Below, one piece after another: positions 15,490 to 32,977 of a stretch of 64,000 nucleotides of DNA (its first letter is position 1; every line of letters starts with the position of its first letter). The notes beneath the pieces are model-generated. The model was not told where the DNA came from, did no database searches, and worked only from the letters and a program-made list of their open reading frames with translations. Source of the stretch: Candidatus Latescibacterota bacterium (GTDB taxonomy: Bacteria > Latescibacterota > UBA2968 > UBA8231); assembly GCA_964291625.2 (NCBI GenBank), contig OZ220089.1, positions 3,456,001 through 3,520,000 of the forward strand. Reading direction: 5' to 3'. The position numbers and the translations under genes are program-made.

Positions 15490-16419
15490 TCACGGGCGCA
15501 CCCGGAGGGCGGCTTTGATACGACCCCAGGATGACCGTTCCACGGCGGAAGCGTCGTCTTGGAGTGGATCCTCTCCGATGCCGACGAGCAAACCATCGAC
15601 GAAATGGCTCGCGAAAGTGTTGACGTTGAGTCCTAAGGGGGTCAGCAGGTACGGGAAGGAAGAGACAAAGGGTGGTTCCTCGTCAGCGTCGAAAAGACGG
15701 AGCTCGAATCCAATGATCTTGCCTGGGTACAGCTCCGAGACTCTGGAGTGGCTCTCGTCGTTGTAGACGAGGCGGTCGAATGGCGTCAACTTCATCTCAA
15801 GGACCCAGGTTGCCGGGCTGTGGCCGATAACTCCGCCACCCCCGGCAGCGTAGGGCGCCATCGTGTGCCACTCGCCAGCACCGGGGTAGCGGAGGGACTG
15901 GTCCTCCGGGTCGATCGGCATCCAGTACATTTGCGCTTGGCGGTAGTTCAACAGAGCAACCTCTTCCTCATCATCGTCGCCGCCAGAGAACTTCCGATAT
16001 CGGCCACCGGAGTGGTCGCCGTCGATGTAGAAGGCCATGCAGGCATCCCAAGTGGTGCAGGATTCCCAATCTTCTTTTCCGTCCCCAAGGTATCCGATGA
16101 AGCGATCATCGAAGGCTTCTACGGCGACCCAGAGGGTAGTGGTGTTCCGGTGCCACGCGAGCCAGACGCGGACATCCAGATTCTTTGGATCGCTGGGATA
16201 GTCGGCGTCGCCCTCCCAGAAGTCGGAGGTGACCAGGGACGGCTCGGAGGCGACCTCGAGCCAGTCCTCGACGCTGCCGTCGGTCAGGTCGATGCGGTCC
16301 AAGTCGTCGTCGAGGAGTTCGTAGAAGAGGTAGATTTCGTCCCCGGTGTGGGCGCGGGTGATGCTGGCGGGGGCCAAGGCGAGCAGCAAGAACAGCGAGT
16401 GAATAGTGCTTGGATGCAT
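15490..16419 (-). CDS. Secreted acidic protein, DOMON/CBM9-like, C-terminal SWGRIK motif (paralog 1)
   Basis: Signal peptide, IDLTDGSVEDW, DGDHSGG, PGKIIGF, SSWGRIKAALR; closest to paralog 6. Confidence 0.8.
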   Translation of the reverse strand: MHPSTIHSLFLLLALAPASITRAHTGDEIYLFYELLDDDLDRIDLTDGSVEDWLEVASEPSLVTSDFWEGDADYPSDPKNLDVRVWLAWHRNTTTLWVAVEAFDDRFIGYLGDGKEDWESCTTWDACMAFYIDGDHSGGRYRKFSGGDDDEEEVALLNYRQAQMYWMPIDPEDQSLRYPGAGEWHTMAPYAAGGGGVIGHSPATWVLEMKLTPFDRLVYNDESHSRVSELYPGKIIGFELRLFDADEEPPFVSSFPYLLTPLGLNVNTFASHFVDGLLVGIGEDPLQDDASAVERSSWGRIKAALRVRP

Positions 16420-16473
16420 TTCCTTCTCCTGCGAGAATGCGACTGGCATTGCTTGGAAGCATGCAGCGCGAAT

Positions 16474-16503
16474 TCTCCCCGGGGGCCAAGGCCCCCGGGG
16501 AGA
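16474..16503 (-). terminator. Hairpin 3' of precursor 1
   Basis: TCTCCCCGGGGGCC-AA-GGCCCCCGGGGAGA perfect inverted repeat. Confidence 0.65.
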
Positions 16504-16519
16504 GCATCAGACCAGCACC

Positions 16520-16810
16520 CTACCAGCACTTACACCGATAGTAGGGCGAGGATCCCAGTCGAACGCACGCCCAACCGCCACCGTCACACGGGGACGCATC
16601 GCAATCATCCTTGCACCAATAGGCATGGTGACTGTTGCAACCCCAGGCTCCCCAGCATGTATCGGCCTGCGCATCTTCAGGCATGCTCAAAACGACGGCC
16701 CCAGCCATCAGCACAGCGGCGACCCAGGCTACCGGCAGGATCGCCTGCTTCCTGACGCCGTCCTCGTTGGCGATAAAGCCGCCCACAACACTGCGGATCC
16801 GCCTCAACAT
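16520..16810 (-). CDS. Cys-rich defensin-like peptide precursor 1
   Basis: 49-aa leader ending AQA plus 47-aa core with 8 Cys; GGAGG RBS; two paralogs in the window. Confidence 0.9.
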   Translation of the reverse strand: MLRRIRSVVGGFIANEDGVRKQAILPVAWVAAVLMAGAVVLSMPEDAQADTCWGAWGCNSHHAYWCKDDCDASPCDGGGWACVRLGSSPYYRCKCW

Positions 16811-16920
16811 GACATTCCTCCCTCAGGAAGGTGGACTGCGTTGATCAAAAAAACCCTCTATCTCCACCCTGCTTTTTTCGCCAGCTACCTCCTCTCTGGG
16901 CCGCAGGGCGCTTTGCCCGT

Positions 16921-17970
16921 TCATCCGTTAAGCCACAGGAGCAGGGCCCTCAAGGGCGGGGCCAAGTGGCCGCCGAAGACGGCGGTGGCCAGCCCGCCGA
17001 GCACGAGGAAGGGGACGAATGGCATGGCTCGGACTAAAGCCACCGTCCCCGGCAGGTCGCCAGAGGTCTGGGTCTGGAGCAGGTTCACCCTCTCTTGATC
17101 GAGGCTCTCCCCGCTTTCCCAGATCACCTCTCCTCCATCGTCCTGGGCCAAGACCATCCGGTGCCGCAGGACCGCGCCAGGCCGAACCCGCCCCACCGGT
17201 AGGTCGTACCCGAAGGCCCCGCCGCTCCCTTGGCGCACCTGCTGAAAGGCCAGCTCTACCAACCACGCCGCCCCCCACATCAGGAGGTAGCGGCTCCAGC
17301 CGCCGGTCGACACGGCCAGCAGCGCGAGCGCCGCCAGCCCAGGAATCACCACCACCGGGCGCCTCTCCGGCTTCAGGCCCCATTCGAGCACGCGGTATCC
17401 CACGACGAGGAAGGTGAACGCTTCCAGGTAGGTCAAGGGGCGGTTGAGCACGAGCTGGGCGAAGCTCAGGGCCAGTCCGAGCAATCCCCCCAGCCCGGCG
17501 GCGGCCTGCAGCCATGGCCCCCGGTTTGCTTTAACGGACATCCATTGTCGTTGCCGCCAAGCCACCACCGCTAGCAGCACGGCGGCATAGGCCACCACCG
17601 CGTTGACAATCAGTGCCGCCGGGGAGGTCTCCAGGGAAACCCACTTCCCCACCGGGCACAGGCTGGGCGGCAGGGCCGCCACGACCGCCCAGTACATCTT
17701 GGCATCGCCCGGCGACCACACCCCCGTCAGCGTCAGCAGGACGGCGACGGCCAGCCCCAACAGGAGGGTCCCGGCCAACTGGCTCCCGCCGCCCACCCCC
17801 AGTCCCACCATCGCCACTTGGCCGGCCACGCCAATGCCGAGCAGCCCAAGGGTATAGCGGTTCGGCACCCGCTGGAACCGGAGGTCCGTGTAGGCGGCGC
17901 AGGTACCGGCCGTCAGGAACGCCGATAGCATGAGCAACTCTACCCAGAGCACAGGATCGCTCACCGACAC
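16921..17970 (-). CDS. A24 prepilin-type aspartic peptidase (TadV/FlaK-like), copy 1
   Basis: YTDLRFQRVPN and SPGDAK catalytic Asp motifs, C-terminal MPFVPFLVLG; GTG start overlaps the redoxin stop. Confidence 0.85.
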   Translation of the reverse strand: MSVSDPVLWVELLMLSAFLTAGTCAAYTDLRFQRVPNRYTLGLLGIGVAGQVAMVGLGVGGGSQLAGTLLLGLAVAVLLTLTGVWSPGDAKMYWAVVAALPPSLCPVGKWVSLETSPAALIVNAVVAYAAVLLAVVAWRQRQWMSVKANRGPWLQAAAGLGGLLGLALSFAQLVLNRPLTYLEAFTFLVVGYRVLEWGLKPERRPVVVIPGLAALALLAVSTGGWSRYLLMWGAAWLVELAFQQVRQGSGGAFGYDLPVGRVRPGAVLRHRMVLAQDDGGEVIWESGESLDQERVNLLQTQTSGDLPGTVALVRAMPFVPFLVLGGLATAVFGGHLAPPLRALLLWLNG

Positions 17971-18545
17971 GAGTCGCAGTCCTCGCCCATGGCCAGATCT
18001 TGCGCCAGCTTTCCAACCAGTTGCAGCACCGGTGCGGCGCCCCGGGCGGCGGCCACCACCGTGCCCTTCGAGTCGATCCGGTAGGCCGTGGGAACGCTGA
18101 CGGCGTAGTAAGCCAGGGAGGTTTGCCCCGTGGTATCCTGTAGCACGGGGTAGAGACCACGGATTCGCGCCTCGATGCTGCCCTCGGGCGGCTCCGGTGG
18201 CATACTGTCGTCGTCCGGACCGTGGATGAAGACCAAGCGCCCCTCTAGGTCGGGAAGCCCTGCGTCGACCAGGTTGGCCTTCAACTCGTTGCAGTACCGG
18301 CAGGTGGTGGTGACGAACACGAGAGCGGAGGTCCGGCCTTTCAGGTCGACCAACCCCAACCCGGGTCCTGCGACCCCGGGCAACTGGAAGTCGGGGGCGG
18401 GCGTGCCCTGGGGCAGTTGCTGCCACTTGCTGCGCGGCAGGCGCTGCAGCAGCGAGCCTCCCGGACCGTCCACGACGACCAGAGCCCACGTCAGGGCCAG
18501 GGCCAGCAGGCCGCCGGCCACGAGGGAGGGTTTGTGCACCACCAT
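17961..18545 (-). CDS. Membrane-anchored TlpA/MauD-like redoxin B, copy 1
   Basis: TM anchor, GTPAPDF, CRYC, SVPT cis-Pro loop; C-terminal CDSC. Confidence 0.85.
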   Translation of the reverse strand: MVVHKPSLVAGGLLALALTWALVVVDGPGGSLLQRLPRSKWQQLPQGTPAPDFQLPGVAGPGLGLVDLKGRTSALVFVTTTCRYCNELKANLVDAGLPDLEGRLVFIHGPDDDSMPPEPPEGSIEARIRGLYPVLQDTTGQTSLAYYAVSVPTAYRIDSKGTVVAAARGAAPVLQLVGKLAQDLAMGEDCDSCR

Positions 18546-18547
18546 AC

Positions 18548-19105
18548 TCAGTCCTGCCTCTCCACAGGGGCGAGCATCCTCTCCAGGTCCCGGCTGCCCA
18601 CGGCGCCCTTGCGCACGACACCCTGGGAGTCAATCAGCAGTACCGAGGGGTAGCCCGGTACGCCGTAGGCTTGGTTCACCTCCCGAAGACGGTCGTGGCC
18701 GGCCTCCGAGGCAAGGCCGTACGGTACCAGCTTCTCATTGAGCACCGACCCCTCTCCCACGCCGACGACGACCACGGGGACTTGCTCGGAAGCCAGGGCG
18801 AGGGCCGGGTACGTGGCGTCGCAGGCCGGGCAGGTGGCGTCAGCGAAAAACAGAAGCCAGGATCGCCCCGCCGGCGCATCATCCGAGGAAACCGTGCCGC
18901 CTTGCAGGCCGTCGAGTGCGAAGGCAGGGGCGGGTTGGCCGATCAGCCGGGCAAAAGGCGCGGGAGTGACGCCGGGCGGGAAGCCGGTGTCGTACCGGGC
19001 CGCGAAGGCCACCAAAGCGGCCAAGAGGATGCCCGATCCCAAGGCCGTTGCGAACACCGAGGGCGGCACGTCGCCGTTGGGTCGCTCTCTCCGGGTTTCT
19101 TGCAT
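18548..19105 (-). CDS. Membrane-anchored TlpA/MauD-like redoxin A, copy 1
   Basis: TM anchor, GQPAPAF, CPAC, GYPSVLLID. Confidence 0.85.
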   Translation of the reverse strand: MQETRRERPNGDVPPSVFATALGSGILLAALVAFAARYDTGFPPGVTPAPFARLIGQPAPAFALDGLQGGTVSSDDAPAGRSWLLFFADATCPACDATYPALALASEQVPVVVVGVGEGSVLNEKLVPYGLASEAGHDRLREVNQAYGVPGYPSVLLIDSQGVVRKGAVGSRDLERMLAPVERQD

Positions 19106-19140
19106 CCCGAGGAATCCTCCTCAGCAGTGAGCATCCATAG

Positions 19141-19157
19141 AGCAAGCTAACTGCCAA
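19141..19157 (-). promoter_or_regulatory. Sigma54 promoter for peptide cassette 1
   Basis: Minus strand TTGGCAGTTAGCTTGCT matches TGGC-N7-TTGC, 36 bp upstream of the redoxin A start. Confidence 0.65.
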
Positions 19158-19278
19158 AGCTTGGTCTTGTCGCATAGTACCACAAATCTACCCTCGCTGG
19201 CAACCACTTTTTCGCTGCCATGCCCAACCAAGGCGATTCTGGCACCCCGCTACCTCCTCATGCTTCCCCTAAGCTCCA

Positions 19279-19670
19279 CAGTCGGTGTTGCCCGACAGGA
19301 CCACCTGGGGTGTCACGACCTTTTGCGCAGGGCCGCCTCCAGCGGCGCCGGGGGTCCGCATCTTGACCAAGACCTTCGTCTCGAATTCGAGCCTCGCCGA
19401 GAATCCTCAGGTACCCTTGGCTGGGCCGGGCGTAGCAGGTGAGGCGCAGCGGTGCTCGCAGCCGCACTAGGGCTTCACGTCGAACCGGAAGCCGACCTCC
19501 GGCGAGGGGTTCTCGGCCAGGATCGAGCGGCTGGCATCCATCAGGTTCTGTTGGGGGCGCGCTCCTCGCCGGGCTCGGCCGGGTCTAGGTGCAGGGGCTC
19601 TAAGCGGTTGGTCTCCCAGGGTGTTGAAGCCGACACGCCACCCCCTCTTGGCGGCCGGCCGCGCCGCCAT
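19279..19670 (-). pseudogene. Degraded 5' part of the PA0069-type radical SAM gene
   Basis: Aligns by eye to about 36309-36724 (KRG...GFNT, DASRSILAENPSPEVGFRF); stop codon and frameshifts. Confidence 0.85.
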
Positions 19671-19844
19671 GCCCCACAGCTTGCCCCTCCGGCGCCTAGG
19701 CCTCGTATTTCGCCCGAAGGGCACTTCCCGTGTCCACGCGTCAAGGATAGCACCCTTCACCAGAAAGGGCACAGCCTCTACTTCTGCGCAATGCCTAGCT
19801 GCGCGAATCTTGGTGTCTCTCAACAAGTGCAAGAAGAAGCCGGA

Positions 19845-20264: not shown

Positions 20265-20329
20265 TTGGTGGTAGCTCCTTATTGTGGTGGGGCGAAAGTG
20301 GACACGGGTCTTGCTCTCCGGATAGATTG

Positions 20330-21379
20330 TCAGTTTCCCTGAGAAGGCTTCTTCAAGAACTGCGGTTGTGAATCACACGAACCAATGAAATAGAAGCGGT
20401 GACCGAAATAGTCAGTGAACTCTGCGATAGTTTTCAGGCTCTCGTAGATGTGGTTGCCTAGGGTGTATTCTGGAGTATTCGTATGTATGGTATCGGCTCC
20501 GAAGATTCTGATTGCCTCTGTCTTGTCGATCACGAATCCATGGTCCTTGTAAGAGTAGACTAGCTCATGGGCGATCCTTTTGGGCGTGTTAGCCGGGGCC
20601 TTTGGGTTGGTTTGGCGAGCGTGGAGTAACTTTTCGGCGTACTGCACTGCAGATTCCGCCACCCGCTCATGGTAGCCAAGGCTGATGGGCTGAAGAGAGA
20701 GATGAAGGTACTTTGCGAACATCTCACTGGCGTGCGGATGACTACTAATGAGGTCTGCAATATGCTCTACGGCGTTCTTTAGGCCAAGGGCAGGCAGGTT
20801 GTTTATCTGTGGGTCGATTGGTCCTAACTCACTCAGACTACCCATATGAATCTCGTCGGCCCCGCAGCAGATCAAAGTCGCGGCAGACTTGGCCTGACGA
20901 GGCACCACTACAACGAACTTCTTGGTTGTGCTTTCCCGACAGAGCTTGCTAATGAGATATGCGGATCCGATATCCCCGCCCGAAGAAAACAGGATAAGCA
21001 AGAGAGGTGCATCGCTTGCACTCTGCTTGGCTGCTGCAGAGTAGATCTTGTCGGCATCAGCCTTGACCATCCTGATATCGTCGTGCAGAATCAGGGTGTT
21101 GTACTCCTTAGCAATGGCATGTTGATCCAGAGTCTGGCTCAAGTACCGCGAGATGAGTTCGTCCCTCTCTATAGATGCCCTGTCTTTTTCTGGAGAGTCA
21201 GGATCTAGGGACTTGAACAGCGGTCCCAAGAGATCGGTGATGGTAAGGGGTTCCTTTTGAGGCGTGGCCTCCTCCGATTCCTTTCCTTCGGGCTCTTGGT
21301 ACTGTGGCGCATCCGCGGCTGGCTCACTCCCAGTTTCTGGCTGTGCTTCCTCGGTGTCCTTCTCCATTTTCTTGGTCAC
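20330..21379 (-). CDS. SDH-family Clp-fold serine protease (SppA/S49-like)
   Basis: SSGGDI, AKSAATLICCGADEIHMGSLSELGPIDPQ, YKDHGFVID; lower GC. Confidence 0.8.
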   Translation of the reverse strand: MTKKMEKDTEEAQPETGSEPAADAPQYQEPEGKESEEATPQKEPLTITDLLGPLFKSLDPDSPEKDRASIERDELISRYLSQTLDQHAIAKEYNTLILHDDIRMVKADADKIYSAAAKQSASDAPLLLILFSSGGDIGSAYLISKLCRESTTKKFVVVVPRQAKSAATLICCGADEIHMGSLSELGPIDPQINNLPALGLKNAVEHIADLISSHPHASEMFAKYLHLSLQPISLGYHERVAESAVQYAEKLLHARQTNPKAPANTPKRIAHELVYSYKDHGFVIDKTEAIRIFGADTIHTNTPEYTLGNHIYESLKTIAEFTDYFGHRFYFIGSCDSQPQFLKKPSQGN

Positions 21380-21841: not shown

Positions 21842-22447
21842 TCAGCGGCCCGGGATGCCGCCCAGCACAGTGTAGCGCTCGAGGGCGGCCTCGGCGGCCG
21901 GCGCCGCCACGGGCCGGTAGAGCTCGGTGTCGACGCCGTGGGGGACCGGGGCCATGGGCAGGCCGAAGCGCTCTTCGGCGCACAGGGAGCGCGAGACGCC
22001 GACGAAGAGATCGGCGCCGCAGCGCAGGACCTCCCGGAGGCGGGCGTCGGACGGCCCGGGCCGATCGGGGAGGACGGCGATGAAGGGGAGTCCGAGCCGC
22101 CGACGGATCTCGGCGCCGGCCAGGGCCGGAGAGGCTCCGAAGCTGCATACCACGTCGGCGTCGGCCAGCAGCGAGCACCAGTGCGGGGCGAGCCCCCGGC
22201 AGGCGCCGGCGGCGAGCCTCGGCTCGGGGTCGTCCGCTCCCGGCACCGAGGTCCGGTGCACCTGGATGGGGGAGCCGCCGGGGCGGAGCAGGATCTCGTC
22301 GCTGGCCAACCCCCGCCCCTCTCCGACGATGGAGATGACGCGGACCCTGCAGCCGCTCCGGGCCAGGCCGTCGGCGCAGTCCTGAACCCTGCGCTCCAGG
22401 CCCCCGGCGGGGGGCGGGATCTCCTGACCGATCAGGCCGATGTTCAT
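21842..22447 (-). pseudogene. GT4 glycosyltransferase, N-terminal domain only (truncated)
   Basis: GQEIPPPAGGLERRV...PVPHGVDTELYRP, then a stop; no C-terminal nucleotide-sugar domain. Confidence 0.65.
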
Positions 22448-22496
22448 CTGCGCGGCTCCGCGGCGAGAGTGGGTGGGCGAATGCCCGGGGCCTTCT

Positions 22497-22558
22497 CCCT
22501 TACAAACGCCGTGCCAGCACCCCCGAGGCCCCGCCGCGTGCTGGGCGGCAACGACTTG
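22497..22558 (-). promoter_or_regulatory. Sigma54-like promoter plus IHF-like site
   Basis: CTGGCACGGCGTTTGTAAGGG, identical to 25727-25747; CAA-N4-TTG at 22549-22558. Confidence 0.6.
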
Positions 22559-22676
22559 CGGCCTTCCCCGGGGCTCTGCCGCCCGGCCGGGTGTGAGTGA
22601 CCGGTGCCACCGGTGGGGCGTGGAGGTGACACCCCCGGGGCAGGGGCCCTGCTCCCCGTGGGACGGCTCTGCCTCT

Positions 22677-23672
22677 CTACCATTCCACGGCCTCCAGTCC
22701 CGCCAGGGCCTTGCCTTCCCTGGCCTCGATGTCCTGGAGCCGGGACTGAATGCGGGGCAGGAGGCTGGCCGGCTCCTTGAGGGCCCCCTTGAGGCACAGG
22801 CTCTTCACGACGAACCAGCCCTGGGAGATCGTCCCGAGCTCGGCGCCGAGCGCTGCCAGGCCGGGCTGGTCGAAGAGCCGGCCCACGTGGCCCAGGAACC
22901 GGCCATGCCCTTCCCGGAGCACGGCGATCTCCAGCAGCAGCCGCGCGCAGTGCTGCAGGTGGCTTCGCAGGAGAGCGTCCTCACGCCTCGCCCAGGCCCC
23001 GGTATCCGCCGCGAGCTGCCGGATCCCCTCCAGGCCCATCACCAGGCCCGCCTGTCCCCGGGTGGCCGACATGCTCCGGAGGTTGCGGCGCAGGAGGCCC
23101 TGAAGGGGGGCGCGGCGCAGGGAGGGAGGCTGCGCCGGCGCCCGCAGCCAGGTCCAGTTGTAGCGGCCGCGCACCCCGGAGAAGGCGCTCATGTCCCAGG
23201 AGGCGAGGAACAGGCCGAGGGGAATGTCCCGCGCGGAGGGCTGCCAGGGCGACGGATCGATGAGGTGGACGGTGCCCGGCGGGTCGTCGTACCCGGCGGC
23301 GATGTACTGGTGGTCGGCATGGCGCAGGCGGGGATAGAGGCCGGCCCGGGCGAGGGCGAAGACGTCGACGTTGACGGCCACCGGGGTACCGGCGTCGAGC
23401 AGCGATCTCACGGCCTTCCACGCGGCCTCGGGGTCCGCCGCGGCGCGGTGGAAGAGGCCGATCCCGAAGGCGCCGAGCATCGTCGGAAGGGGGATGGCGC
23501 GGCCGTCGATGGCGAAGCGTCCCTCCTCCCGGAGGTAGAGGAAGTCCCAGTTGGAGAAGCAGGGCACGGTGGGCTCGTGGCCGTGGAAGCGCAGCAGACT
23601 GTCGAGCACCACGTAGACGCAGTTGTAGTGCCGGTTGGCGCAGAAGGGAATGCCGGTGATCCGCTGGCTCAT
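22677..23672 (-). CDS. BtrH-like (papain-fold N-terminal/DUF4872-like) protein
   Basis: HYNCV, GTPVAVNVD...LY, HADHQYIAAGYD, HLIDP, GLEGIRQLA. Confidence 0.7.
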   Translation of the reverse strand: MSQRITGIPFCANRHYNCVYVVLDSLLRFHGHEPTVPCFSNWDFLYLREEGRFAIDGRAIPLPTMLGAFGIGLFHRAAADPEAAWKAVRSLLDAGTPVAVNVDVFALARAGLYPRLRHADHQYIAAGYDDPPGTVHLIDPSPWQPSARDIPLGLFLASWDMSAFSGVRGRYNWTWLRAPAQPPSLRRAPLQGLLRRNLRSMSATRGQAGLVMGLEGIRQLAADTGAWARREDALLRSHLQHCARLLLEIAVLREGHGRFLGHVGRLFDQPGLAALGAELGTISQGWFVVKSLCLKGALKEPASLLPRIQSRLQDIEAREGKALAGLEAVEW

Positions 23673-24304
23673 GGGGAGGCGGCGTCCGCCGCGGCGAGGG
23701 TGAGGGCGAAGAGGTGCATGGACGGGTTGTCCGGCAGCAGCAGGGCCGAGAGGGGCCGGGGGCCGGGCAGGTCGATCCCCTGGTGCCAGATCCCGGCCTC
23801 GATGCGCGTCTCCTCCGTCTCGCAGCCGGCTTCGGGCGGGGAGGAACCGATGAGAGATGAGAGAGGGACCGACGTGTCGGGGGTCGTGAGCGGACAGCAG
23901 AGGGCCATGCCTTCGCCGTACTGCAGCCCCCCGTAGCGCGGCGCGTCGCTCAGTCCCAGGCGGGTCTCCGCCAGGGTGCCGTCGGCGGCCTTCAACCGGA
24001 GGGGTTCCTCGAAGGCGCGCCAGTCGCACATGCCCAGGACGTGGAGGACACCCCAGGGGCCCGGCGGCAAGGGGATCACCTGGGACTCGCAGGCGATGTT
24101 GTCCTTCGAGCCGCGGGTTCGGCCCGCGAGGACGAAGGGTATCCCCCGGCTGACGATGGTCGCCCCCGGGGCCGGGAGGCTCTCGGCCCGGAAGGCCGTG
24201 CCCATCCCGTCGAGGCCGCCGTCCTCCGGCCGTCCGGCCGGGGCGATGCCGCCGTTGTTGAAGTGGGAGGACAGGTCCAGGGGGGCGTGGCGGTCCCCGG
24301 GCAT
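23669..24304 (-). CDS. Hypothetical protein, probable carbohydrate-associated beta-sandwich
   Basis: LDLSSHFNN, GLDGMG, KDNIACESQ, LPDNPSMHLFALTL; 4-nt overlap with the BtrH-like gene. Confidence 0.6.
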   Translation of the reverse strand: MPGDRHAPLDLSSHFNNGGIAPAGRPEDGGLDGMGTAFRAESLPAPGATIVSRGIPFVLAGRTRGSKDNIACESQVIPLPPGPWGVLHVLGMCDWRAFEEPLRLKAADGTLAETRLGLSDAPRYGGLQYGEGMALCCPLTTPDTSVPLSSLIGSSPPEAGCETEETRIEAGIWHQGIDLPGPRPLSALLLPDNPSMHLFALTLAAADAASP

Positions 24305-24311
24305 GGAACCC

Positions 24312-25683
24312 TCAGGCCGGATGGACGGGTTCCGGAGAGAGCACTGGCCGGCCGCTGTCCGCGCGGTCCCGTCGGCCGGCGGAATGGGGCCCCGTCAGGC
24401 GGCGCCAGGTGTCGATGAACAGCGCGTCGAAGGCGAGGCTGCCGGCGCGGGCGCCCTCATCGAGGACATGATCGCCGGCGGGGAGCGGGCCGGCCGTCAG
24501 CCGGCGCACCGCCGCTGCGAGGCCCTCCACCGTGGGGGTGAACCGCTGCCGCGGCGGGACCAGCGACGCGGCCTCGACCCGGTCGGGCGCGTCCGCCACC
24601 AGCGTGCATACCCCCCGCGCCGCCGCCTCCAGCGGGGTCAGGCCGCAGGTCTCGTAGCGGGACGGACAGACGAACAGGCCGCGTCCGGCCAACTCGTCGA
24701 GCAGCTGGGCCAGGTCGCCGCGCGGGACCCTGGGGGCAAAGCGGAAGCGGTGGGCCAGGGACTCGTCCACCAGTCTCTCCAGGCGCCGGCGCTCGCCGTC
24801 CCGGGGAGGCCCCCCGATGATCAGCACGCGCAGGTCGAGACCCGACCTCAGCAGCCGCAGCGCGGCCTGCACGAGAAGCTCGACGTTCTTGAACGCGTCC
24901 AGCCGCGAGCAGGCCGTGCACAGGATCACCCCCGGACCGGCCCCGCCGATGAAGCGCCGCAGTCGCGCACCGGCCTCCGAGAAACCGCTGGCCCCGTCCG
25001 CCCATTCCAATGGAGGGTGGATCCGGTGGATGAACCGGCCTTCGACGCCGTGCCTCCGCAGGTAGTCGGCCTGGATCGCCGAGATCTCGACGGCGGAACC
25101 GCGGCTGCGGGCGAGGCAGTCCAGCCCGATGCGCTGGTGGTTCCGCAGGTGCTCCAGCTTGGCGCGGCCGGCCCCGAAGGCATCCGCGGCCAGGCGCGGA
25201 CCCATGACCTCGACCACGTGGTCCACGAAGGGCGCGTGATGGGTGACGACGAAGGGTTGCCCCGGCGGGTGAAAGGGCAGCAGCACGTTGGTCTGGTAGT
25301 AGAGCCGTCCGCGGCCGAGGCGCGCGCGGGCGTCCTCCAGGGCCGCGCCACCACCCGGCGGCCCATGCCGAAGTGAAAGCCGACCTCCAGGGCCGGATAC
25401 CCGGGGAACTGCGCCGGCTCCAGCCGTGGCCGGTCCAACCCTCGTCGCGCCGGTAGAGCAGAAACCCGGCCAGCAGCCCGCGGCGGTGGAGGGCTTCCGC
25501 CGCCTTCAGGGCATAGGCGACGGCCCCGCACTTGAGAGGTCCCGCCCACGACGCGGGCGCGAAGTTGCCGTTGAGCACGATGATGCCCCGGCCCGGGCCA
25601 CGGCCGGTTGCGGGCCCGGGACCAGGCCGGCGCGGCTGAGGACACGGGGATGGCAGGGGGCGGGTAACGCCTGGCTGCGACAT
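24312..25683 (-). pseudogene. GT-B/GT4 glycosyltransferase with two frameshifts
   Basis: One coherent protein across three frames (FLLYRRDE / LEVGFHFGM / LYYQTN...VTHHAPF...SRLDAFKN...PSRYETCGLTPLEA); shifts near 25440 and 25347. Could be sequencing error. Confidence 0.7.
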
Positions 25684-25726
25684 TTCCCATCGACGGGGTT
25701 GGAGGGATGCCACGTTGCACGCAGTC

Positions 25727-25788: not shown

Positions 25789-25937
25789 CAGGAATCCGGC
25801 CGACCCCCGCCGCGGAATCGGGTGGGTCCTCCGGGAAACACCGGTGTGTGCCAGGGAGACGCGGCGCGAGGTCCGCTCAAGGCCCTCCTCGCCGGGCTCG
25901 GGGGTCGGGCTCCAGAGCAGGCGGTGCCGGGCACCGC

Positions 25938-26867: not shown

Positions 26868-26921
26868 GGTATCCTCCTTGGTTAACGGAGGTCTTCGGGA
26901 TAGGCCGGCAGACCGGACAGG

Positions 26922-27848
26922 CTACCGAAGGGCCGCCTTGATCCTCCCCCAGGAGGACGGCTCGACGGCGGAGACATCGTCGTAGCTGGAGGGGTCTTCT
27001 CCGGCACCGACAAGCAGGCCGTCGGAGAAGAGATCCGCGTTGATCATCTCTTGCGCTCTGCCGGAGAGCGATATCATGACGGGGGATGGCCCTTCCCAGG
27101 CCCGAATAGCGTCATTGTCCCACATGGACATCGAGAACCCGATAATCTTGCCCGAGTAGAGCTCCGATGCTTCGGAGCCCTCCTCGTCGTTGTAGATGAG
27201 GTCGTCGAAGGGGGTCAACATGAACTCGGTGACGGAGGTCGCCGGGCTCTGGCCGATGACGCCGCCCCCGGCTGCGGCATACGGCTCCCGGATCACCCAG
27301 TCGCTGGCGCCGTCGTAGTCGAGGATGTCGCCGCCGCCGGGCGCCTCGGCGATCGCCATCCACCGCTGTGCGTGACGGTGGTTCCAGAGCACTTGCTCGG
27401 GGGTGCACTGCTCGCAGTTGATCCCGAGAAACTGGCCGTAAATCCCGGCGGTGTGGTCGCCGTCGACCATGAAGGCGATGCTGGAATCCCAGTTGTTCAT
27501 GTCATGGAGTCCGGCCCCCTCGTAGCTATTGATGTAGAGATCATCGAAGCGCTCCATGGCGACCCAGAGGGTACCGCTGCTCTCGTTCCAGGCGAGCCAG
27601 ATGCGGAAGTCCAGGTCCGAGAGATCGTAGGCCCCGAACAGCCAGTAGAAATCGCTGGCCGTCAGTGAGGGTTCGCCGACGACCTCGATCCAGTCCTCGA
27701 CGCTGCCGTCGGTCAGGTCGATCCGGTCCAGGTCCTCGTCGAGGAGCTCGTAGAAGAAGTAGACCTGGTCGCCGACATGGGCGTGGGTGACGGTAGCGAG
27801 AACTAGGATCAGGAGGAAGGCCAAGAGCCTGGAAGGGTAGAGGCACAT
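26922..27848 (-). CDS. Secreted SWGRIK-family protein (paralog 3)
   Basis: Same conserved blocks; CEQC insert; ends SSWGRIKAALR. Confidence 0.85.
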   Translation of the reverse strand: MCLYPSRLLAFLLILVLATVTHAHVGDQVYFFYELLDEDLDRIDLTDGSVEDWIEVVGEPSLTASDFYWLFGAYDLSDLDFRIWLAWNESSGTLWVAMERFDDLYINSYEGAGLHDMNNWDSSIAFMVDGDHTAGIYGQFLGINCEQCTPEQVLWNHRHAQRWMAIAEAPGGGDILDYDGASDWVIREPYAAAGGGVIGQSPATSVTEFMLTPFDDLIYNDEEGSEASELYSGKIIGFSMSMWDNDAIRAWEGPSPVMISLSGRAQEMINADLFSDGLLVGAGEDPSSYDDVSAVEPSSWGRIKAALR

Positions 27849-27921
27849 GCTGTTACTCTTGTCGGGATGGACATCTACTTCCGAAGAAAGGAGTGAGCCC
27901 TTGGTGTCTCCGAGGGGTCTG

Positions 27922-27961
27922 AGCCAAGGGAGCTGGGATCCAGGACCCCGCTCCCTTGGCT
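27922..27961 (-). terminator. Hairpin 3' of precursor 2
   Basis: AGCCAAGGGAGC...GCTCCCTTGGCT; homologous to 30322-30354. Confidence 0.6.
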
Positions 27962-28009
27962 TGGAGCTGTGGCCGAGTGCCTAAAACGCACATCGAGCCA
28001 CTGGCGAGA

Positions 28010-28300
28010 CTATGGCCAGCCACATCGGCAACGCTTCAACCCCGATGAACCATAGGGGACGCACCCGGAAGACCAAGAGTAGCAGCTGGTATTGCACGAG
28101 GAAGTGCAAATTGAGGGGCTGGTGTTGTAGCACCAAGCTGCCCAGCAATAGTCGGCATGGGCCTTTTCAGGCATGCTCACCACGACAGCGGCGGCCATCA
28201 TCACGGCACCGACCCAGGCCAAGGGCAGGATCGCCTGCTTCCTGACGGCGTCCTCACTGGCGACGAAGCCGCCCACAAGGTCACGAAACTTCTTCAACAT
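28010..28300 (-). CDS. Cys-rich defensin-like peptide precursor 2
   Basis: Leader ends AHA; 8-Cys core; GAGGAG RBS. Confidence 0.9.
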   Translation of the reverse strand: MLKKFRDLVGGFVASEDAVRKQAILPLAWVGAVMMAAAVVVSMPEKAHADYCWAAWCYNTSPSICTSSCNTSCYSWSSGCVPYGSSGLKRCRCGWP

Positions 28301-28406
28301 AACTCACTCCTCGGTAAGGAAATGAACTGCGTTGATCTCAGAAACTACTCCACTTCCGCCCTGCCTTGCGCCACGTACCTCCTCTCTGAGCCGCAGGGGT
28401 GCGAGT

Positions 28407-29030
28407 TCATCCATTGAGCCATGCAATCAACGCCCTCAACGGCGGGGCGAGGTGGCCGCCAAAGGCGGCGGTGGCCAGCCCGCCGAGCACGAGGAAGGGG
28501 ACGAAGGGCAGGGCCCGGGCCAACTCCACCGTCTCAGGCAGGTCGCCCGAGGCCGTCCCCTTCTGAATCAGATTCGCCCCCTGCTGGTCGAGGCTCTGCC
28601 CGCTCTCCCAGACCATCTCCGCCCCATCGTCCCCGGCCAGCCCCATCCGGTGCCGCAGCACCGCTCCCGGCCGAAGCCGCCCCACCGGCAGCTCGTACCC
28701 GTAGGCCCGCCCGCTCCCGTGCCGCAGCTGCTGAAAGGCCAGCTCCACCAGCCACGCCGCCCCCCAGATGAGGGCATAGTCCTTCCAGCCGCCGGTCGAC
28801 ACGGCCAGCACCGCGAGAGCCGCCAGCCCGGGAATCACCACCACCGGACGCCTCTCCGGCTTCAGGCCCCACTCCAGCAGGCGGTATCCCACGACGAGAA
28901 AGGCGAAGGCCTCCAGGTAGCTCAGGGGCCGGTTCAGCACGAGCTGGGCGAAGCCGAAGCGGTTGGGGGTGTTGAAGCCGGCGGCGCGGCCCCTCTTGCC
29001 GGGAGGCCGGGGCGTGGCGGGGTCGGGCAT
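28407..29030 (-). pseudogene. Chimeric ORF: radical SAM N-terminal 25 aa fused in frame to the C-terminal half of the A24 peptidase
   Basis: MPDPATPRPPGKRGRAAGFNTPNRF + GFAQLVLNRPLSYLEAF...; both catalytic Asp motifs are absent. Confidence 0.85.
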
Positions 29031-29069
29031 GGGGGCGGTCTGGGTTTGGGGGGGGGGCGCCGGATAATG

Positions 29070-29087
29070 GTGTATATGTGTGCAGTA
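29070..29087 (-). promoter_or_regulatory. LexA/SOS-box-like motif
   Basis: TACTG-CACACATATA-CAC, shared with 36759-36776. Confidence 0.4.
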
Positions 29088-29126
29088 TACGGCGGAGGGG
29101 AACCGGAACAAGCGGGGGGCAGCGGC

Positions 29127-30062
29127 TCAGGGACGCACCCGGAGGGCGGCCTTGATGCGGCCCCAGGAGGACGGCGCAACGGCGGAAGTGTTGTCGTAGC
29201 GGGAGGGGTCTTCCCCGGCGCCGATGAGCAAGCCATCGACGAAGAAATCGGCGTTGGTCAGTGCCTCCAACTTGGCGGTTAGCGACAGAAGGATCGACAC
29301 CCCAGACCCATCCGTCGCCTGAGTAACGTCGTTGTCCGTCGTGTCTATCGAGAACCCGAGAGTCTTGCCCGGGTAGAGCTTCGATGCTTCGGAGGCTTCC
29401 TCGTCGTTGTAGATGAGATCGTCGAAGGGAGTCACCTTGAACTCGGTGACCGTGGTCGCCGGGGTCTCGCCAATGACGCCGCCGCCAGCGGCGGCGTACG
29501 GCTCTCTGATCACCCACTCGCTGGCCCCGCCATGGTGCAAATGGTCGCCGTCGGGCGTCTCGGCGATTGCGACCCACTCTTGGGCCTGACGGTTGTTCTC
29601 AAGGACTTGGTCGGCCGTGCAGCCCTCGCAGTTGAACCCGAGAAGGTAGCTGTATGGCCCACCGCTGTGGTCGCCGTCGACCATGAAGCTGATGCTGGAA
29701 TCCCACCAGTGCATCTTCCAGGGTTCGTCCCCGTCGTAGCGGTTGAAGTAGAGGTCATCGAAGCGCTCCATGGCGACCCAGAGGGTACTGCTGCTCTGGT
29801 TCCATGCGAGCCAGATGCGGAAGTCCACTTCCGATGGATCGTATGAATGAAACTCCCAGATGAAGTCGCTGGCCGTCACCGAGGGCTCCCCGACGACCTC
29901 GAGCCAGTCCTCGACGCTGCCGTCGTTCAGGTCGATGTGGTCCAGGTCCTCGTCGAGGAGCTCGAAGAAGGGGTAGACTTGGTCGCCGATGTGGGCGTGG
30001 GTGCTGGGGGGGAGGGTTAGTATCGGGCTTAAGGTCAGGAGGGAAACGAGGCAGGTGCGCAT
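29127..30062 (-). CDS. Secreted SWGRIK-family protein (paralog 4)
   Basis: AAGGAG RBS, signal peptide, CEGC insert, SSWGRIK. Confidence 0.85.
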   Translation of the reverse strand: MRTCLVSLLTLSPILTLPPSTHAHIGDQVYPFFELLDEDLDHIDLNDGSVEDWLEVVGEPSVTASDFIWEFHSYDPSEVDFRIWLAWNQSSSTLWVAMERFDDLYFNRYDGDEPWKMHWWDSSISFMVDGDHSGGPYSYLLGFNCEGCTADQVLENNRQAQEWVAIAETPDGDHLHHGGASEWVIREPYAAAGGGVIGETPATTVTEFKVTPFDDLIYNDEEASEASKLYPGKTLGFSIDTTDNDVTQATDGSGVSILLSLTAKLEALTNADFFVDGLLIGAGEDPSRYDNTSAVAPSSWGRIKAALRVRP

Positions 30063-30084
30063 GGTGCTTCTCCTTAGTGACGCC

Positions 30085-30152
30085 GAAGATCCCAAATGTG
30101 GTCGAGGTCCTCGGCGGGGAACTCGTAGGAGGGTAGATCGTCGCGGATGTGA
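30085..30152 (-). pseudogene. N-terminal remnant of a SWGRIK-family gene
   Basis: HIRDDLPSYEFPAEDLDHI resembles HIGDEIYPFYELLDEDLDHI. Confidence 0.5.
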
Positions 30153-30321
30153 AGAAACACCATGTGGCGCAAACCCGCTGGGTTGCTTGGCTTCCCCTTG
30201 AACCCGGATAGGTGGCTATCCATCCTACAGGGGCGTGGGAACCGCTTGTGAAAACCCAGGAAAGGAGGTGATGCTTTGTGCTTCCTAGGGAACTCACCTC
30301 TCCCTGATCCAAGGTCTGGGG

Positions 30322-30354
30322 CAAGGGAGCGGGGAACCAGTCCCCGCTCCCTTG
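30322..30354 (-). terminator. Hairpin 3' of precursor 3
   Basis: CAAGGGAGCGGGGA-ACCAG-TCCCCGCTCCCTTG, perfect 14-bp stem. Confidence 0.65.
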
Positions 30355-30401
30355 GAGCTATGACCCGCGTGCTTTCAGGGCGCACCAGGTCTCCCGATGG
30401 A

Positions 30402-30689
30402 CTACCACCCACATCGGCACCGATACGTGCCCGATGAACCATACTGGACACATCCGGAAGAGTAGACCTTGCAGTATTTTCCGCAGACGTAAGGACAGGG
30501 TGAGGGACTGACGTTGTAGCAGTCCACCGCCACCCAGCAATAAGCATCGGCCTTTGCGGGCATGCTTAGCACGACAGCAGCCGCCATCATCACGGCACCG
30601 ACCCAGGCCACAGGCAGGATCGCCTGCTTCCTGCCAACGTCCTCGCTAGCGATGAAGCCGCCCAGAAGACTGCGCACCTGCTTCAACAT
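30402..30689 (-). CDS. Cys-rich defensin-like peptide precursor 3
   Basis: Start MLKQ chosen by homology; leader ends ADA; 8-Cys core. Confidence 0.9.
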   Translation of the reverse strand: MLKQVRSLLGGFIASEDVGRKQAILPVAWVGAVMMAAAVVLSMPAKADAYCWVAVDCYNVSPSPCPYVCGKYCKVYSSGCVQYGSSGTYRCRCGW

Positions 30690-30786
30690 GATTCTTCCTC
30701 CTATGGAAGTGAACTGCATCAGTCCTAGAATTCTCCACGCGGCGACATGTCGTTTACCTCCTCTCTGGGCCGCAGGGGGGTGTAAT

Positions 30787-31839
30787 TCATCCGTTGAGCC
30801 ACACGAGCAAGGCCCTCAACGGCGGGGCCAAGTGCCCTCCGAAGGCGGCGGTAACCAGCCCGCCGAGCACGAGGAAGGGGACGAAGGGCAGGGCCCGCGC
30901 CAGCTCCACCGTCCCGGGCAGATCGCCAGAGGCCGCCCGCTTCTGCAGCAGGTGCACCCTGTCTTGGTCGAGGCTCTGCCCGCTCTCCCAAGTCACCTCC
31001 GCCCCATCGTCCCCGGCCAGGACCAACCGGTGCCGCAGGACCGCTCCGGGCCGAACCCGCCCCACCGGCATCTCGTACCCGTAGGCCCGCCCGCTCCCGT
31101 GCCGCACCTGCTGAAAGGCCAGCTCCAACAGCCACGCCACCCCCCAGATCAGGGCATAGTCCTTCCAGCCGCCGGTCGACACGGCCAACAGCGCCAGGGC
31201 CGCCAGCCCGGGGATCATTACCACCGGACGCCTCTCCGGCTTGAGGCCCCACTCCAGCAGGCGGTATCCCACGACGAGGAAGGCGAAGGCTTCCAGGTAG
31301 CTCAAGGGGCGGTTGAGCACGAGGTGGGCGAAGCTCAGGGCCAAGCCGAGCAGGCCTCCCAGCCCGGCGGCGGCCTGCAGCCATGGCCCCCGGTTTCCCT
31401 TGGCGGACATCCACTGACGCTCTCGCCAAACCACGACCGCCAGAAGCACGGCGACGTAGGCCACCACGGCGTTGGCAATCAGCGCCGCCGGAGGGGTTTC
31501 CAGAGAGACCCATTCGCCCACCGGGCACAGGCTCGGCGGCAGGGCGGCCACGGCCGCCCAGTACATCTTGGCGTCGCCCGGCGACCAGACTCCCGCCAGC
31601 ATCAGCAGGAGCGCCACCCCCAGCCCCAGGAGCAGGGTCCCCGCCACCTGGTTCCAGCCGCCCACGCCCAGTCCCACCATCGCCGCCTGGCCGGTCACGC
31701 CGACCCCGAGCAGCCCGAGGGTGTAGCGGTTCGGCACCCGCTGGAACCGGAGGTCCGTCCAGGCCGCACAGATCCCGGCCGTCAGCAACGCCGACAGCAT
31801 CACCAGCTCCACCCAGAGAATGGGGTCGCCTAGGGACAC
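30787..31839 (-). CDS. A24 prepilin-type aspartic peptidase, second intact copy
   Basis: WTDLRFQRVPN, SPGDAK, LPFVPFLVLG. Confidence 0.85.
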   Translation of the reverse strand: MSLGDPILWVELVMLSALLTAGICAAWTDLRFQRVPNRYTLGLLGVGVTGQAAMVGLGVGGWNQVAGTLLLGLGVALLLMLAGVWSPGDAKMYWAAVAALPPSLCPVGEWVSLETPPAALIANAVVAYVAVLLAVVVWRERQWMSAKGNRGPWLQAAAGLGGLLGLALSFAHLVLNRPLSYLEAFAFLVVGYRLLEWGLKPERRPVVMIPGLAALALLAVSTGGWKDYALIWGVAWLLELAFQQVRHGSGRAYGYEMPVGRVRPGAVLRHRLVLAGDDGAEVTWESGQSLDQDRVHLLQKRAASGDLPGTVELARALPFVPFLVLGGLVTAAFGGHLAPPLRALLVWLNG

Positions 31840-32411
31840 GACCGGCACTCCTCGTCCAAGGCCACGTCCTCGGCCAGTTCCTCGACCAGTTCCTGGACCG
31901 GCCCCACGCCCCGGGCCGCCGCCGCCACCGTGCCCTCCGGGTCGAGGCGGTAGGCCGTGGGCACGCTGACGGCGTAGTAGGCCAGCGACGTCTCTCCCGT
32001 GGTGTCCAGCAGCACGGGGTAGAGGCGGCGGATCCGGGCCTCGACGCCGTCCTCGGTCGTCTCTGCGGACGGACCGTCGTCCGGACCGTGGATGAAGACC
32101 AGGCGGCCCCCCAGGTCAGGCAGCCCGGCGTCGAGCAGATTCGCCTTCAGGTCGTTGCAGTATTGGCAGGTGGTGGTGACGAAGACGAGAGCGGAAGTCC
32201 GGCCCTTCAGGTCGGCCAGTTCCAACCCCGGCCCGGCGATCCCGGCCAGTTGGAAGTCGGGAGCGGGGGTGCCCCGGGGCAGTTGCTGCCACTGGCTGCG
32301 CGGCAGCCGGTTCAGCAGGGAGCCCGGCGGACCGTCCACGGCGACCAGGGCCCCGGTCAGGGCGAGGGCCAGCAGGCCGCCGGCCAGGAGAGAGGGTCTG
32401 TGCGCCGCCAT
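31830..32411 (-). CDS. Redoxin B, copy 2
   Basis: CQYC, SVPT, C-terminal CRSC; paralog of 17961-18545. Confidence 0.85.
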   Translation of the reverse strand: MAAHRPSLLAGGLLALALTGALVAVDGPPGSLLNRLPRSQWQQLPRGTPAPDFQLAGIAGPGLELADLKGRTSALVFVTTTCQYCNDLKANLLDAGLPDLGGRLVFIHGPDDGPSAETTEDGVEARIRRLYPVLLDTTGETSLAYYAVSVPTAYRLDPEGTVAAAARGVGPVQELVEELAEDVALDEECRSCP

Positions 32412-32413
32412 GC

Positions 32414-32977
32414 TCAGTCCTGCCTCTCCGCAAGGGCGAGCACCTGCTCCAGGCCCTGGCTGCCCACCGCGCCCTTGCGCACCACGCCCTGCGGATCGAT
32501 CAAGAGCACCGAGGGGTAGCCCGGCACGCCGTAGGCCTGGTTCACCTCCCAGCGGCGGTCGTGGCCGGCGACCGGGACCAGGCCGTGCGGGGCCAGCTTC
32601 TCCTGAAGGACCGCCCGGTCGCCCGCGCCGACGACGATGACGGGGTATCGCTCGGAGACCCGGGCGAGGGCGGGGTAGGTGGCGTCGCAGGCCTGGCAGG
32701 AGGCCTCTGCGAAGAACAGGAGCCATGATCGCCCCGCCGGCGCATCGTCCGAGGACACGGTGGGGCCCTGGAGGCCGTCGAGGGTGAAGGCGGGGGCGGG
32801 CTGGCCGAGCAGGTGGGCAAAAGGCGGGGGCGTGATCCCGGGCGGGTAGCCGGTCTCGAGCCGGGCGGCCACGGCCACCAGGGAGGCCAGGAGGAGGCCC
32901 GATCCCAGGGCCGCGCCGAAGACGCTCGGGGGGACGCTGTCGTTGCCAGCAGATCCTTGGTCCCGGGCTTCGTCCAT
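32414..32977 (-). CDS. Redoxin A, copy 2
   Basis: CQAC, GYPSVLLID; paralog of 18548-19105. Confidence 0.85.
   Translation of the reverse strand: MDEARDQGSAGNDSVPPSVFGAALGSGLLLASLVAVAARLETGYPPGITPPPFAHLLGQPAPAFTLDGLQGPTVSSDDAPAGRSWLLFFAEASCQACDATYPALARVSERYPVIVVGAGDRAVLQEKLAPHGLVPVAGHDRRWEVNQAYGVPGYPSVLLIDPQGVVRKGAVGSQGLEQVLALAERQD

Follow-up and report, generated by a model that had tools for sequence, protein, structure and literature searches.

We analysed a 64,000-nucleotide (nt) stretch of DNA from Candidatus Latescibacterota bacterium (contig OZ220089.1, positions 3,456,001 to 3,520,000; in the following, the window), in which a cassette encoding two redoxins, a long A24 aspartyl peptidase and a small peptide precursor with eight cysteines occurs repeatedly. 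Taken together, the repeated cassette looks like an undescribed route to defensin-like secreted peptides. We give an even chance to the reading that it constitutes a dedicated, pilus-independent maturation module for small secreted disulfide-rich peptides, the biochemical steps of which we infer. The evidence comprises the joint occurrence of the cassette genes in related genomes, the architecture of the precursor, with a conserved leader and a hypervariable Cys-rich core, and the make-up of the host genome (5.9 Mb, 95% complete, two contigs).

Linkage of redoxins, A24 peptidase and precursor

To follow the cassette beyond the window, we used a sample of 168 reference genomes of one phylum. 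The long A24 gene was present in 32 of them, distributed over 7 of 49 genera and three families of one class, the precursor profile matched 35, and 31 genomes held both. In the single genome with A24 only (G052), a divergent precursor adjoins the A24 gene (L066), and among the four genomes with precursor only, one reaches 75% completeness and another yielded a single weak match. The patchy distribution also agrees within the window's genus, where the same four of nine other genomes carry both the long A24 gene and the precursor. At the level of individual loci, at least one redoxin was found in 27 and a precursor in 15 of 30 loci with 1.5-kb flanks, and of 16 loci extended to at least 18 kb, drawn from three families of one class, 14 contained the full set of A24 gene, both redoxins and one or more precursors. 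Four further loci (the genome_contigs set) appear, by matching hidden Markov model hits, to be the same places as L037, L046, L038 and L040 and were not counted as independent. The association of the leader with A24 and redoxins that a preliminary description of this DNA had proposed is thus borne out in genomes and loci alike. Three gene orders were seen, namely redoxin A (redA), redoxin B (redB), A24, precursor in the window, A24, redA, redB, precursor in a distant subfamily, and redA, redB, precursor, SWGRIK gene (see below), A24 in another genus. Because gene order differs between lineages, the linkage has outlived rearrangement. No exporter belongs to the conserved set. Precursor matches reach 16 per genome (G130), as compared to one to six A24 matches, and in some genomes such high numbers stand beside just one or two A24 genes. 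In G130 and G146, with 16 and 12 precursor matches, many of these lie within ~40 kb of A24 and others are scattered over the chromosome.

In the window itself, the unit runs in the order redoxin A, redoxin B, long A24 peptidase, precursor of ~96 amino acids (aa) and GC-rich hairpin, with a gene for a SWGRIK-ending protein 3' of each unit. The cassette had been described as triplicated; the gene order recurs at 19105-15490 and 32977-29127, and there are two complete cassettes and one 5'-truncated copy rather than three full ones. The orphan third precursor fits the same pattern of many precursors per enzyme. Every gene of the cassettes lies on the minus strand, and the coordinates below are from a list of open reading frames (ORFs) with translations.

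18548-19105, minus: redoxin A (redA) copy 1, 185 aa, membrane-anchored thioredoxin fold, CPAC motif
17961-18545, minus: redoxin B (redB) copy 1, 194 aa, CRYC motif and a second motif, CDSC, at the C-terminal tail
16921-17970, minus: long-form A24 aspartyl peptidase copy 1, 349 aa, GTG start at 17970
16520-16810, minus: precursor 1, 96 aa, 49-aa leader and 47-aa 8-Cys core
16474-16503, minus: hairpin after precursor 1, 13-pair GC-rich stem, UUGG loop, z = -4.0
15490-16449, minus: secreted protein with SWGRIK C-terminus, copy 1, 319 aa
32414-32977, minus: redoxin A copy 2, 187 aa, CQAC motif, 300-nt repeat blocks in common with cassette 1
31830-32411, minus: redoxin B copy 2, CQYC and C-terminal CRSC, repeat D8 with 85% identity to copy 1
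30787-31839, minus: long-form A24 aspartyl peptidase copy 2, 350 aa
30402-30689, minus: precursor 2, 8-Cys core, MLKQ Met start by homology (the ORF could begin at 30719)
30322-30354, minus: hairpin after precursor 2, 14-pair GC-rich stem, z = -2.8
29127-30095, minus: SWGRIK protein copy 2, 322 aa
28407-28955, minus: A24 remnant, C-terminal half only, ORF reaching 29111 via unrelated sequence, repeats D3 and D10
28010-28300, minus: precursor 3, intact, 96 aa, 8 Cys
27922-27961, minus: hairpin after precursor 3, 18-pair GC-rich stem, z = -3.8
26922-27848, minus: SWGRIK protein copy 3, 308 aa
25938-26867, minus: SWGRIK-type protein copy 4, 309 aa, C-terminus SWARIK
33328-34224, minus: SWGRIK protein copy 5, 298 aa
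34326-35438, minus: SWGRIK protein copy 6, 370-aa ORF

The copies share 73-85% DNA identity over blocks of 150-300 nt and, judged by these sequences, are old, diverged paralogues and not chance matches. In both complete cassettes the coordinates place the redA stop 2 nt before the redB start, and redB overlaps the A24 start by ~10 nt, in agreement with the preliminary description. A Shine-Dalgarno-like GAGGGAGGA lies 5' of the ATG of precursor 1 and represents a strong ribosome-binding site. For the hairpin that follows each of the three precursors, none of 200 shuffled sequences folded equally well. A scan for consensus terminators called 11 sites against 8.6 expected, none of them at the three hairpins; the hairpin after precursor 1 was not called because it lacks a T run. 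Contigs of one metatranscriptome run (X1; 0.12 of sampled words) touch 25 of 30 bins; RNA libraries can hold DNA, and such contigs cannot show transcription. Exact pieces cover 27541-27674 and, with two gaps, 28167-28360, while the bins of precursor 2 are uncovered. The GC content of the cassette region is ~0.65, below that of its flanks (0.72-0.77). A 48-nt repeat of 75% identity connects 28967-29014, just upstream of the A24 remnant, with 19619-19666, upstream of cassette 1, and may mark the recombination joint that removed redA, redB and the N-terminus of A24 from the third copy.

The SWGRIK proteins have no Pfam or NCBIfam match, and the 368 homologues of the SWGRIK-type copy 4 are all unnamed or labelled 'hypothetical'. 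The family has 18 matches in the host genome. One such protein per cassette had been noted before; a SWGRIK gene does follow each copy, and the region holds six of them. Of the 75 genomes of the window's family, 67 encode SWGRIK proteins, most of them without the cassette, and none occurs in the two other cassette-bearing families. SWGRIK genes flank the cassette in three genera and, in one genome, lie between precursor and A24 or beside A24 alone. SWGRIK is a lineage-specific neighbour and not a core part, and we dropped it from the cassette as first described. An assignment to CBM9 was also rejected: Atlas features of copy 1 pointed to CBM9_1-bearing clusters (scores of 0.97, 0.96 and 0.94), the label came from these features alone, and no Pfam CBM9 match was obtained even at E <= 1. 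By our own reading of the six proteins, a likely signal-peptide cut between AHA and H would leave an N-terminal His followed by [ITV]-G-[DE], and a DGDHSGG motif is common to them. An N-terminal His exposed by cleavage would recall the copper 'histidine brace' proteins.

The precursor, the peptidase and the redoxins

A word-indexed search of 5.8 billion clusters returned 32 precursor homologues, none of them named, and a profile search of 1.84 billion representatives gave 39 matches, mostly of 93-110 aa; Pfam and NCBIfam scans found no match for any precursor. The leader of ~49 residues consists of a variable N-terminus, the motif F-x-x-x-E-x-G, a short polar stretch, a transmembrane helix and the sequence P-x-x-A-x-A. 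In a broad alignment (A4, 32 rows), conservation is 90% or more at F12, E16, G18, V19, A28, W29, P44, A47 and A49 and likewise at the core cysteines C66, C82, C93 and C95, with C52, C58 and C70 being invariant. In the close family, the leader also contains an invariant, helix-breaking L-P. Among 29 close homologues, mean pairwise identity is 0.83 for residues 19-49, 0.45 for the core and 0.35 for the core without its Cys columns, and the corresponding values for the broad set of 32 are 0.48, 0.28 and 0.12. All eight cysteines are present in 27 of the 29 close homologues, in 25 of the 32 broad ones and in the three window precursors. Having a conserved leader, a hypervariable core and several precursors per enzyme, the system follows the precursor logic of peptides that are ribosomally synthesized and modified after translation (RiPPs). 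We also considered a type IV pilin-like cut between G and FxxxE (G11, with E16 at +5), but rejected it because the broad family conserves E16 and G18 and not G11.

The core carries CxxxC (66, 70) and CxC (93, 95), which together mark cysteine-stabilised alpha-beta peptides. In the AlphaFold2 (AF2) model, the core has a predicted local distance difference test score (pLDDT) of 83-92 and forms a strand (52-56), a helix that bears the CxxxC motif (65-72) and two further strands (80-84 and 91-95), the last of which carries CxC. The Cys positions thus place CxxxC on the helix and CxC on a strand, as in cis-defensins; the pairing itself is not readable from the AF2 model. Foldseek at E <= 10 gave 34 weak matches, among them three plant defensins (target template modelling score (TM-score) 0.46-0.56, root-mean-square deviation 2.2-4.8) and six scorpion toxins. 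An Atlas search with the core (residues 50-96) returned no usable match. We use 'defensin-like', the term of the preliminary description, as a fold label only, because Cys signature and predicted beta-alpha-beta-beta fold agree with it but Foldseek and Pfam matches stay below significance. With respect to the modelled fold it is a fair description, and it does not denote family membership.

The two intact peptidases match Peptidase_A24 (PF01478) with 28.5 bits (copy 1) and 33.5 bits (copy 2) against a cut-off of 26.5, and these cassette genes are the only two PF01478 matches in the host genome. The catalytic D32 and D92, the latter in a PGDxK context, had been reported as intact in both copies, and all 16 aligned long A24 proteins (alignment A3, 43-100% identity) keep them unchanged, together with G91-D92-x-K94, a P-P-x-L-C-P motif and a C-terminal P-x-V-P-F. 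With (S/A)PGD at this place, the motif departs from GxGD at its first Gly. The third, remnant copy matches only model positions 174-356, therefore lacking either catalytic Asp, and gives no PF01478 match. Searches returned 63 long A24 homologues in two tiers, three of which the Joint Genome Institute (JGI) names CpaA; the A24 profile found nothing at E <= 1 among solved structures. At 349-350 aa, the protein is about twice as large as Tad-type A24 enzymes. Its AF2 model is poor (mean pLDDT 59.2, predicted TM-score 0.41), showing extra helices and a small strand-rich inserted domain at residues ~255-320 with a pLDDT of ~80, and its Foldseek matches (RNA polymerase chains, TM-score ~0.15) were discarded as meaningless. 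Co-prediction of A24 with the whole precursor scored 0.52 as compared to 0.00 for the best of three controls, with runs sharing at least 76% of contacts and a partner pLDDT of at least 73. In the calibration, 58 of 80 solved complexes passed the mark, as did 2 of 110 mismatched pairs, and the band at or below 0.60 contained only 7 of the 80 solved complexes and both mismatched passes. The modelled complex is therefore weak support for the pairing of A24 with the precursor.

Both redoxins resemble TlpA-like proteins, combining a thioredoxin-fold Pfam match (redA: AhpC-TSA 45.9 bits, Redoxin 39 bits; redB: AhpC-TSA 28.9 bits) with a CxxC motif (CPAC or CQAC in redA, CRYC or CQYC in redB). They fall short of the NCBIfam equivalog cut-offs for ResA (38.7 vs 170), DsbE (28.3 vs 123) and MauD (30.5 vs 188.6). 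The nearest solved relatives of redA are ResA, DsbE and CcmG, and redB has 2yp6 and 4hqz ('thioredoxin family protein') as relatives in the PDB. A Pfam profile search of the host genome yielded no match for DSBA, DsbB or VKOR and one for DsbD_TM, on contig 2, and in a genome without DSBA, DsbB and VKOR matches a private disulfide module makes sense. Neighbour clustering revealed a fourth cassette gene in other genera (loci L061-L076), encoding a membrane-anchored protein of ~200 aa (for example L068:11064-11693 and L070:11952-12626) with the invariant motifs R-H-D-I-x-C-x-x-C and D-G-x-[ST]-G-A-T (DG[ILV][ST]GAT). FMN_bind was its only or best Pfam match, always sub-threshold (14-18.6 bits vs 22; five of five tested). 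The full-length gene (E <= 1e-30) occurs in 26 genomes, 25 of which belong to the 32 genomes with the long A24 gene, and it was found in none of the five genomes of the window's genus that carry the cassette. Not being found in the host genome, it was rejected as a part of the window's system. A side observation concerns the C-terminal CxSC tail of redB (CDSC at 17961-17990, CRSC at 31830-31860), which is present only in copies from the window's genus, exactly the genus in which the FMN_bind-like CxxC gene is missing.

The pilus independence of the cassette is supported. The absence of pilus and Tad genes, first noted for the window, holds for the whole genome, which has neither the ATPase T2SSE nor the platform protein T2SSF and no A24 gene beyond the cassette. 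T2SSE above cut-off is also absent from 28 of the 32 genomes with the long A24 gene, and Flp_Fap (PF04964) exceeded its cut-off in none of the 168 genomes of the phylum.

Proposed maturation pathway and alternatives

In the pathway that we consider evenly balanced between right and wrong, the ~96-aa precursor would use its conserved helix to insert into the inner membrane, placing its N-terminus on the inner and its Cys-rich domain on the outer side. The long A24 peptidase may recognise leader and helix; its cut would fall on the cytoplasmic face, behind the near-invariant Gly in E-x-G (G18). The two membrane-anchored CxxC redoxins would make or rearrange the four disulfides in the defensin-like core, and cleavage at the P-x-x-A-x-A site, which is signal peptidase I-like in look, would release a peptide of ~46 aa. 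Because a hypervariable core stands behind a conserved leader and related genomes hold many precursors per enzyme, the sequences suggest a diversifying library of antagonistic or host-directed peptides.

A number of observations weigh against this pathway. Regarding the core, Foldseek found no match to the precursor model at E <= 0.001, and the Pfam defensin models gave sub-threshold matches only (AtDEF-like in 2 of 32 precursors, best E = 0.0029; Gamma-thionin in 2 of 32). Regarding the leader, none of the 32 precursors matched Flp_Fap at E <= 5, and the label 'pilin-type' therefore draws on a short motif and on a likeness to Flp leaders. Should a signal-peptidase-type site free the core, there would be no explanation of why an A24 cut is needed, and the score of the predicted complex lies in a band where a pass is more often wrong unless the guess is already likely. 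The redoxins resemble reductive TlpA, ResA and CcmG types and not DsbA-type oxidases, and the FMN_bind-like CxxC gene was not found in the host genome with one protein query and profile A6. With respect to linkage, in two of the 16 extended loci (L067 and L069, both of genome G102) A24 stands amid SWGRIK genes and neither a precursor nor a redoxin lies within 18 kb, and because all cassette genomes are from one class, the co-occurrence counts are inflated by shared ancestry.

Several other readings of the cassette were weighed. It is unlikely, though the strongest of the alternatives, that the A24 cut is the sole step of leader removal and that a product of ~78 aa keeps both transmembrane helix and Cys-rich head, as a membrane-anchored surface peptide or as an extracted helix-bearing toxin like the TMcins. 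Residues 19-49 being the best-conserved part of the precursor (0.83 vs 0.45 for the core) is unusual for a plain signal peptide, the wider locus holds an ABC exporter (40864-42702), and TMcins, in the text excerpts of their report, are an earlier case of a mature product with a transmembrane helix (PMC13252029). However, P44, A47 and A49, with their signal-peptidase-type look, are at least 90% conserved directly before the core, the exporter is outside the conserved set beyond the window's genus, and no conserved extraction machinery was seen. It is distinctly improbable that signal peptidase I alone frees the peptide and that A24 then acts on the left-over 49-aa leader, either for clearance or for setting free its 18 N-terminal residues, which would serve as a signal in the cytoplasm. 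Such a role would explain the conservation of both E-x-G and A-x-A and suits the invariant helix-breaking L-P of the close family, and A24 enzymes, like signal peptide peptidases, belong to the GxGD-type intramembrane aspartyl proteases. On the other hand, prepilin-type A24 enzymes cut intact precursors at the cytoplasmic face, nothing points to a cytoplasmic receiver of the signal, and the complex prediction, weak as its support is, used the whole precursor.

Two further alternatives deny the proposed relation between enzymes and peptide. The genes could be neighbours that share no pathway, the redoxins serving envelope thiol homeostasis and A24 having another substrate, for example the SWGRIK proteins. 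TlpA-like proteins are indeed common housekeeping enzymes, and the two G102 loci put A24 directly downstream of SWGRIK arrays. We nevertheless judge this very improbable: 31 genomes hold both of two genes that occur in 35 and 32 of 168 genomes, the patchiness matches inside genera, and the set is kept together through three gene orders, whereas the SWGRIK proteins have ordinary signal peptides, occur in 67 of 75 family genomes that mostly lack A24, and are missing from the two other cassette families. The least credible option, to which we attach a minute chance, makes the precursors subunits of an unusual Flp-like fibre. Flp prepilin leaders end in E-x-G before a hydrophobic helix, as the leader does here, and JGI labels 3 of 63 A24 homologues CpaA. 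Yet the host genome lacks T2SSE and T2SSF, with T2SSE over cut-off missing in 28 of 32 long-A24 genomes, no precursor matches Flp_Fap, and a hypervariable disulfide-rich head behind a signal-peptidase-like site would be a misfit in a packed fibre.

Known systems and neighbouring genes

In the literature, we found no described system that joins an A24 peptidase, redoxins and Cys-rich peptides, in agreement with the preliminary description, which named no described RiPP or bacteriocin class built this way. The closest system, the TMcin RiPP pathway of Gram-positive bacteria, comprises the precursor TmcA as well as TmcP, TmcD, TmcBC and TmcE, and its cluster encodes its own thiol-disulfide oxidoreductase because host capacity is poor, as stated in the excerpts of the report (PMC13252029). 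In both systems the precursors combine a long leader with a transmembrane helix, an intramembrane protease acts on the leader and maturation is at the membrane (both putative in our case), and an oxidoreductase is encoded alongside (PMC13252029, excerpts). As far as these excerpts describe the TMcin parts, no component is homologous: an A24 aspartyl enzyme stands against an S2P/DUF3267 metalloprotease, two TlpA-like redoxins against the DsbA-type TmcD, and a predicted four-disulfide defensin-like core against one disulfide in a pore-forming helix peptide, and the cassette has neither an ABC transporter nor an escort protein as a conserved companion (PMC13252029). Pfam scans of the cassette proteins for TMcin parts (DUF3267 protease, DsbA-type TmcD, TmcBC) gave only Peptidase_A24 and AhpC-TSA/Redoxin. 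In contrast to the Gram-positive TMcin producers, the cassette hosts carry NCBI labels of Gram-negative phyla. We presume that these phyla have a diderm envelope.

With Flp/Tad prepilins and CpaA/TadV, the cassette shares a Peptidase_A24 domain with both Asp residues and no methyltransferase domain, and a candidate substrate in which E-x-G precedes a hydrophobic helix. It differs in the protease being about twice as long, in precursors that fail Flp_Fap, in the lack of a Tad or type IV ATPase and platform, and in the 8-Cys domain behind A-x-A. An A24 enzyme serving non-pilus proteins is known from archaea, where class III signal peptides on non-pilin secreted proteins are cut by the A24 peptidase PibD and need a type IV-like assembly system; here, the candidate substrates are Cys-rich peptides and the genome has no such assembly system. 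The cassette redoxins share the thioredoxin fold, CxxC motif and N-terminal membrane anchor with TlpA, ResA, CcmG/DsbE and MauD, of which MauD assists a Cys-rich secreted subunit. They remain far below the equivalog cut-offs, have no cytochrome c maturation or mau genes nearby and, unlike these types, travel as two paralogues with an A24 gene (14 of 16 extended loci hold both). As to the product, the window cores fit the regular expression quoted for bacterial cis-defensins in the available text of a survey and show their CxxxC...CxC signature (PMC11561630). That survey, in the same text, distinguishes five classes and dropped sequences with predicted transmembrane segments from its screen, and its main text contains no occurrence of 'Gemmatimon-', 'Latescibacter-' or 'peptidase' (PMC11561630). 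Compared with the cis-defensins covered there, the window's peptides are set apart by their eight cysteines, by the helix in their 49-aa leader and by a cassette with its own dedicated protease and redoxins (PMC11561630). Actifensins and actinomycesin are, in the excerpts of their reports, other small bacterial peptides with the CxxxC...CxC signature (PMC6989792, PMC8819291).

Regarded as a known kind of system, the cassette would be a leader-guided, membrane-based maturation of a disulfide peptide, with a fair chance of deserving a new-class name. We tentatively propose, at slightly less than an even chance, an undescribed class of peptide natural products, in which hypervariable defensin-fold libraries would be made from membrane-inserted precursors by an A24 lineage that has left pilus biogenesis, together with a private disulfide module (two TlpA-like redoxins and, in most lineages, a flavin-type CxxC protein) in a setting where no DsbA, DsbB or VKOR was seen. 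If true, the work of A24 prepilin peptidases would extend beyond pili, secretion pseudopili and archaella, the TMcins would be joined by a second, independently evolved membrane-based peptide maturation, and defensin-fold peptides would reach poorly known uncultured lineages labelled Latescibacterota or Gemmatimonadaceae. The redoxins, with the FMN_bind-like CxxC protein of related genomes, may show extracytoplasmic disulfide formation without DsbA, DsbB and VKOR, and leader plus long A24 could provide a mining handle for a large collection of naturally diversified four-disulfide peptides that current genome-mining rules miss.

Several neighbouring genes accompany the cassettes in the window. 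A low-GC (0.56), defence-type island at 9202-15226 adjoins cassette 1 and contains an ATPase matching PADLOC HEC-04 (153.7 bits), a 1012-aa UvrD-like helicase matching GajB and RTasHel, a C5 cytosine methyltransferase and an ORF of 136 aa, which we take, from reading its sequence alone, as a Vsr-type very-short-patch repair endonuclease. Between cassette 1 and a glycosyltransferase region, a low-GC patch holds the gene of a ClpP-like SDH-type serine protease (20330-21379; PF01972, 49 bits). The glycosyltransferase family 4 pieces (21842-25286) surround a BtrH_N/DUF4872 protein of a papain-like fold family, encoded at 22677-24029 between the cassettes, and homologues of this protein also occur near the cassette in L027 and L028. 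At 40864-43795, the ABC exporter (ABC_membrane and ABC_tran, 612 aa, 40864-42702) is preceded by a redoxin-DUF3738 fusion; this pair lies outside the cassette in other genera and is conserved beside SWGRIK genes in L027.

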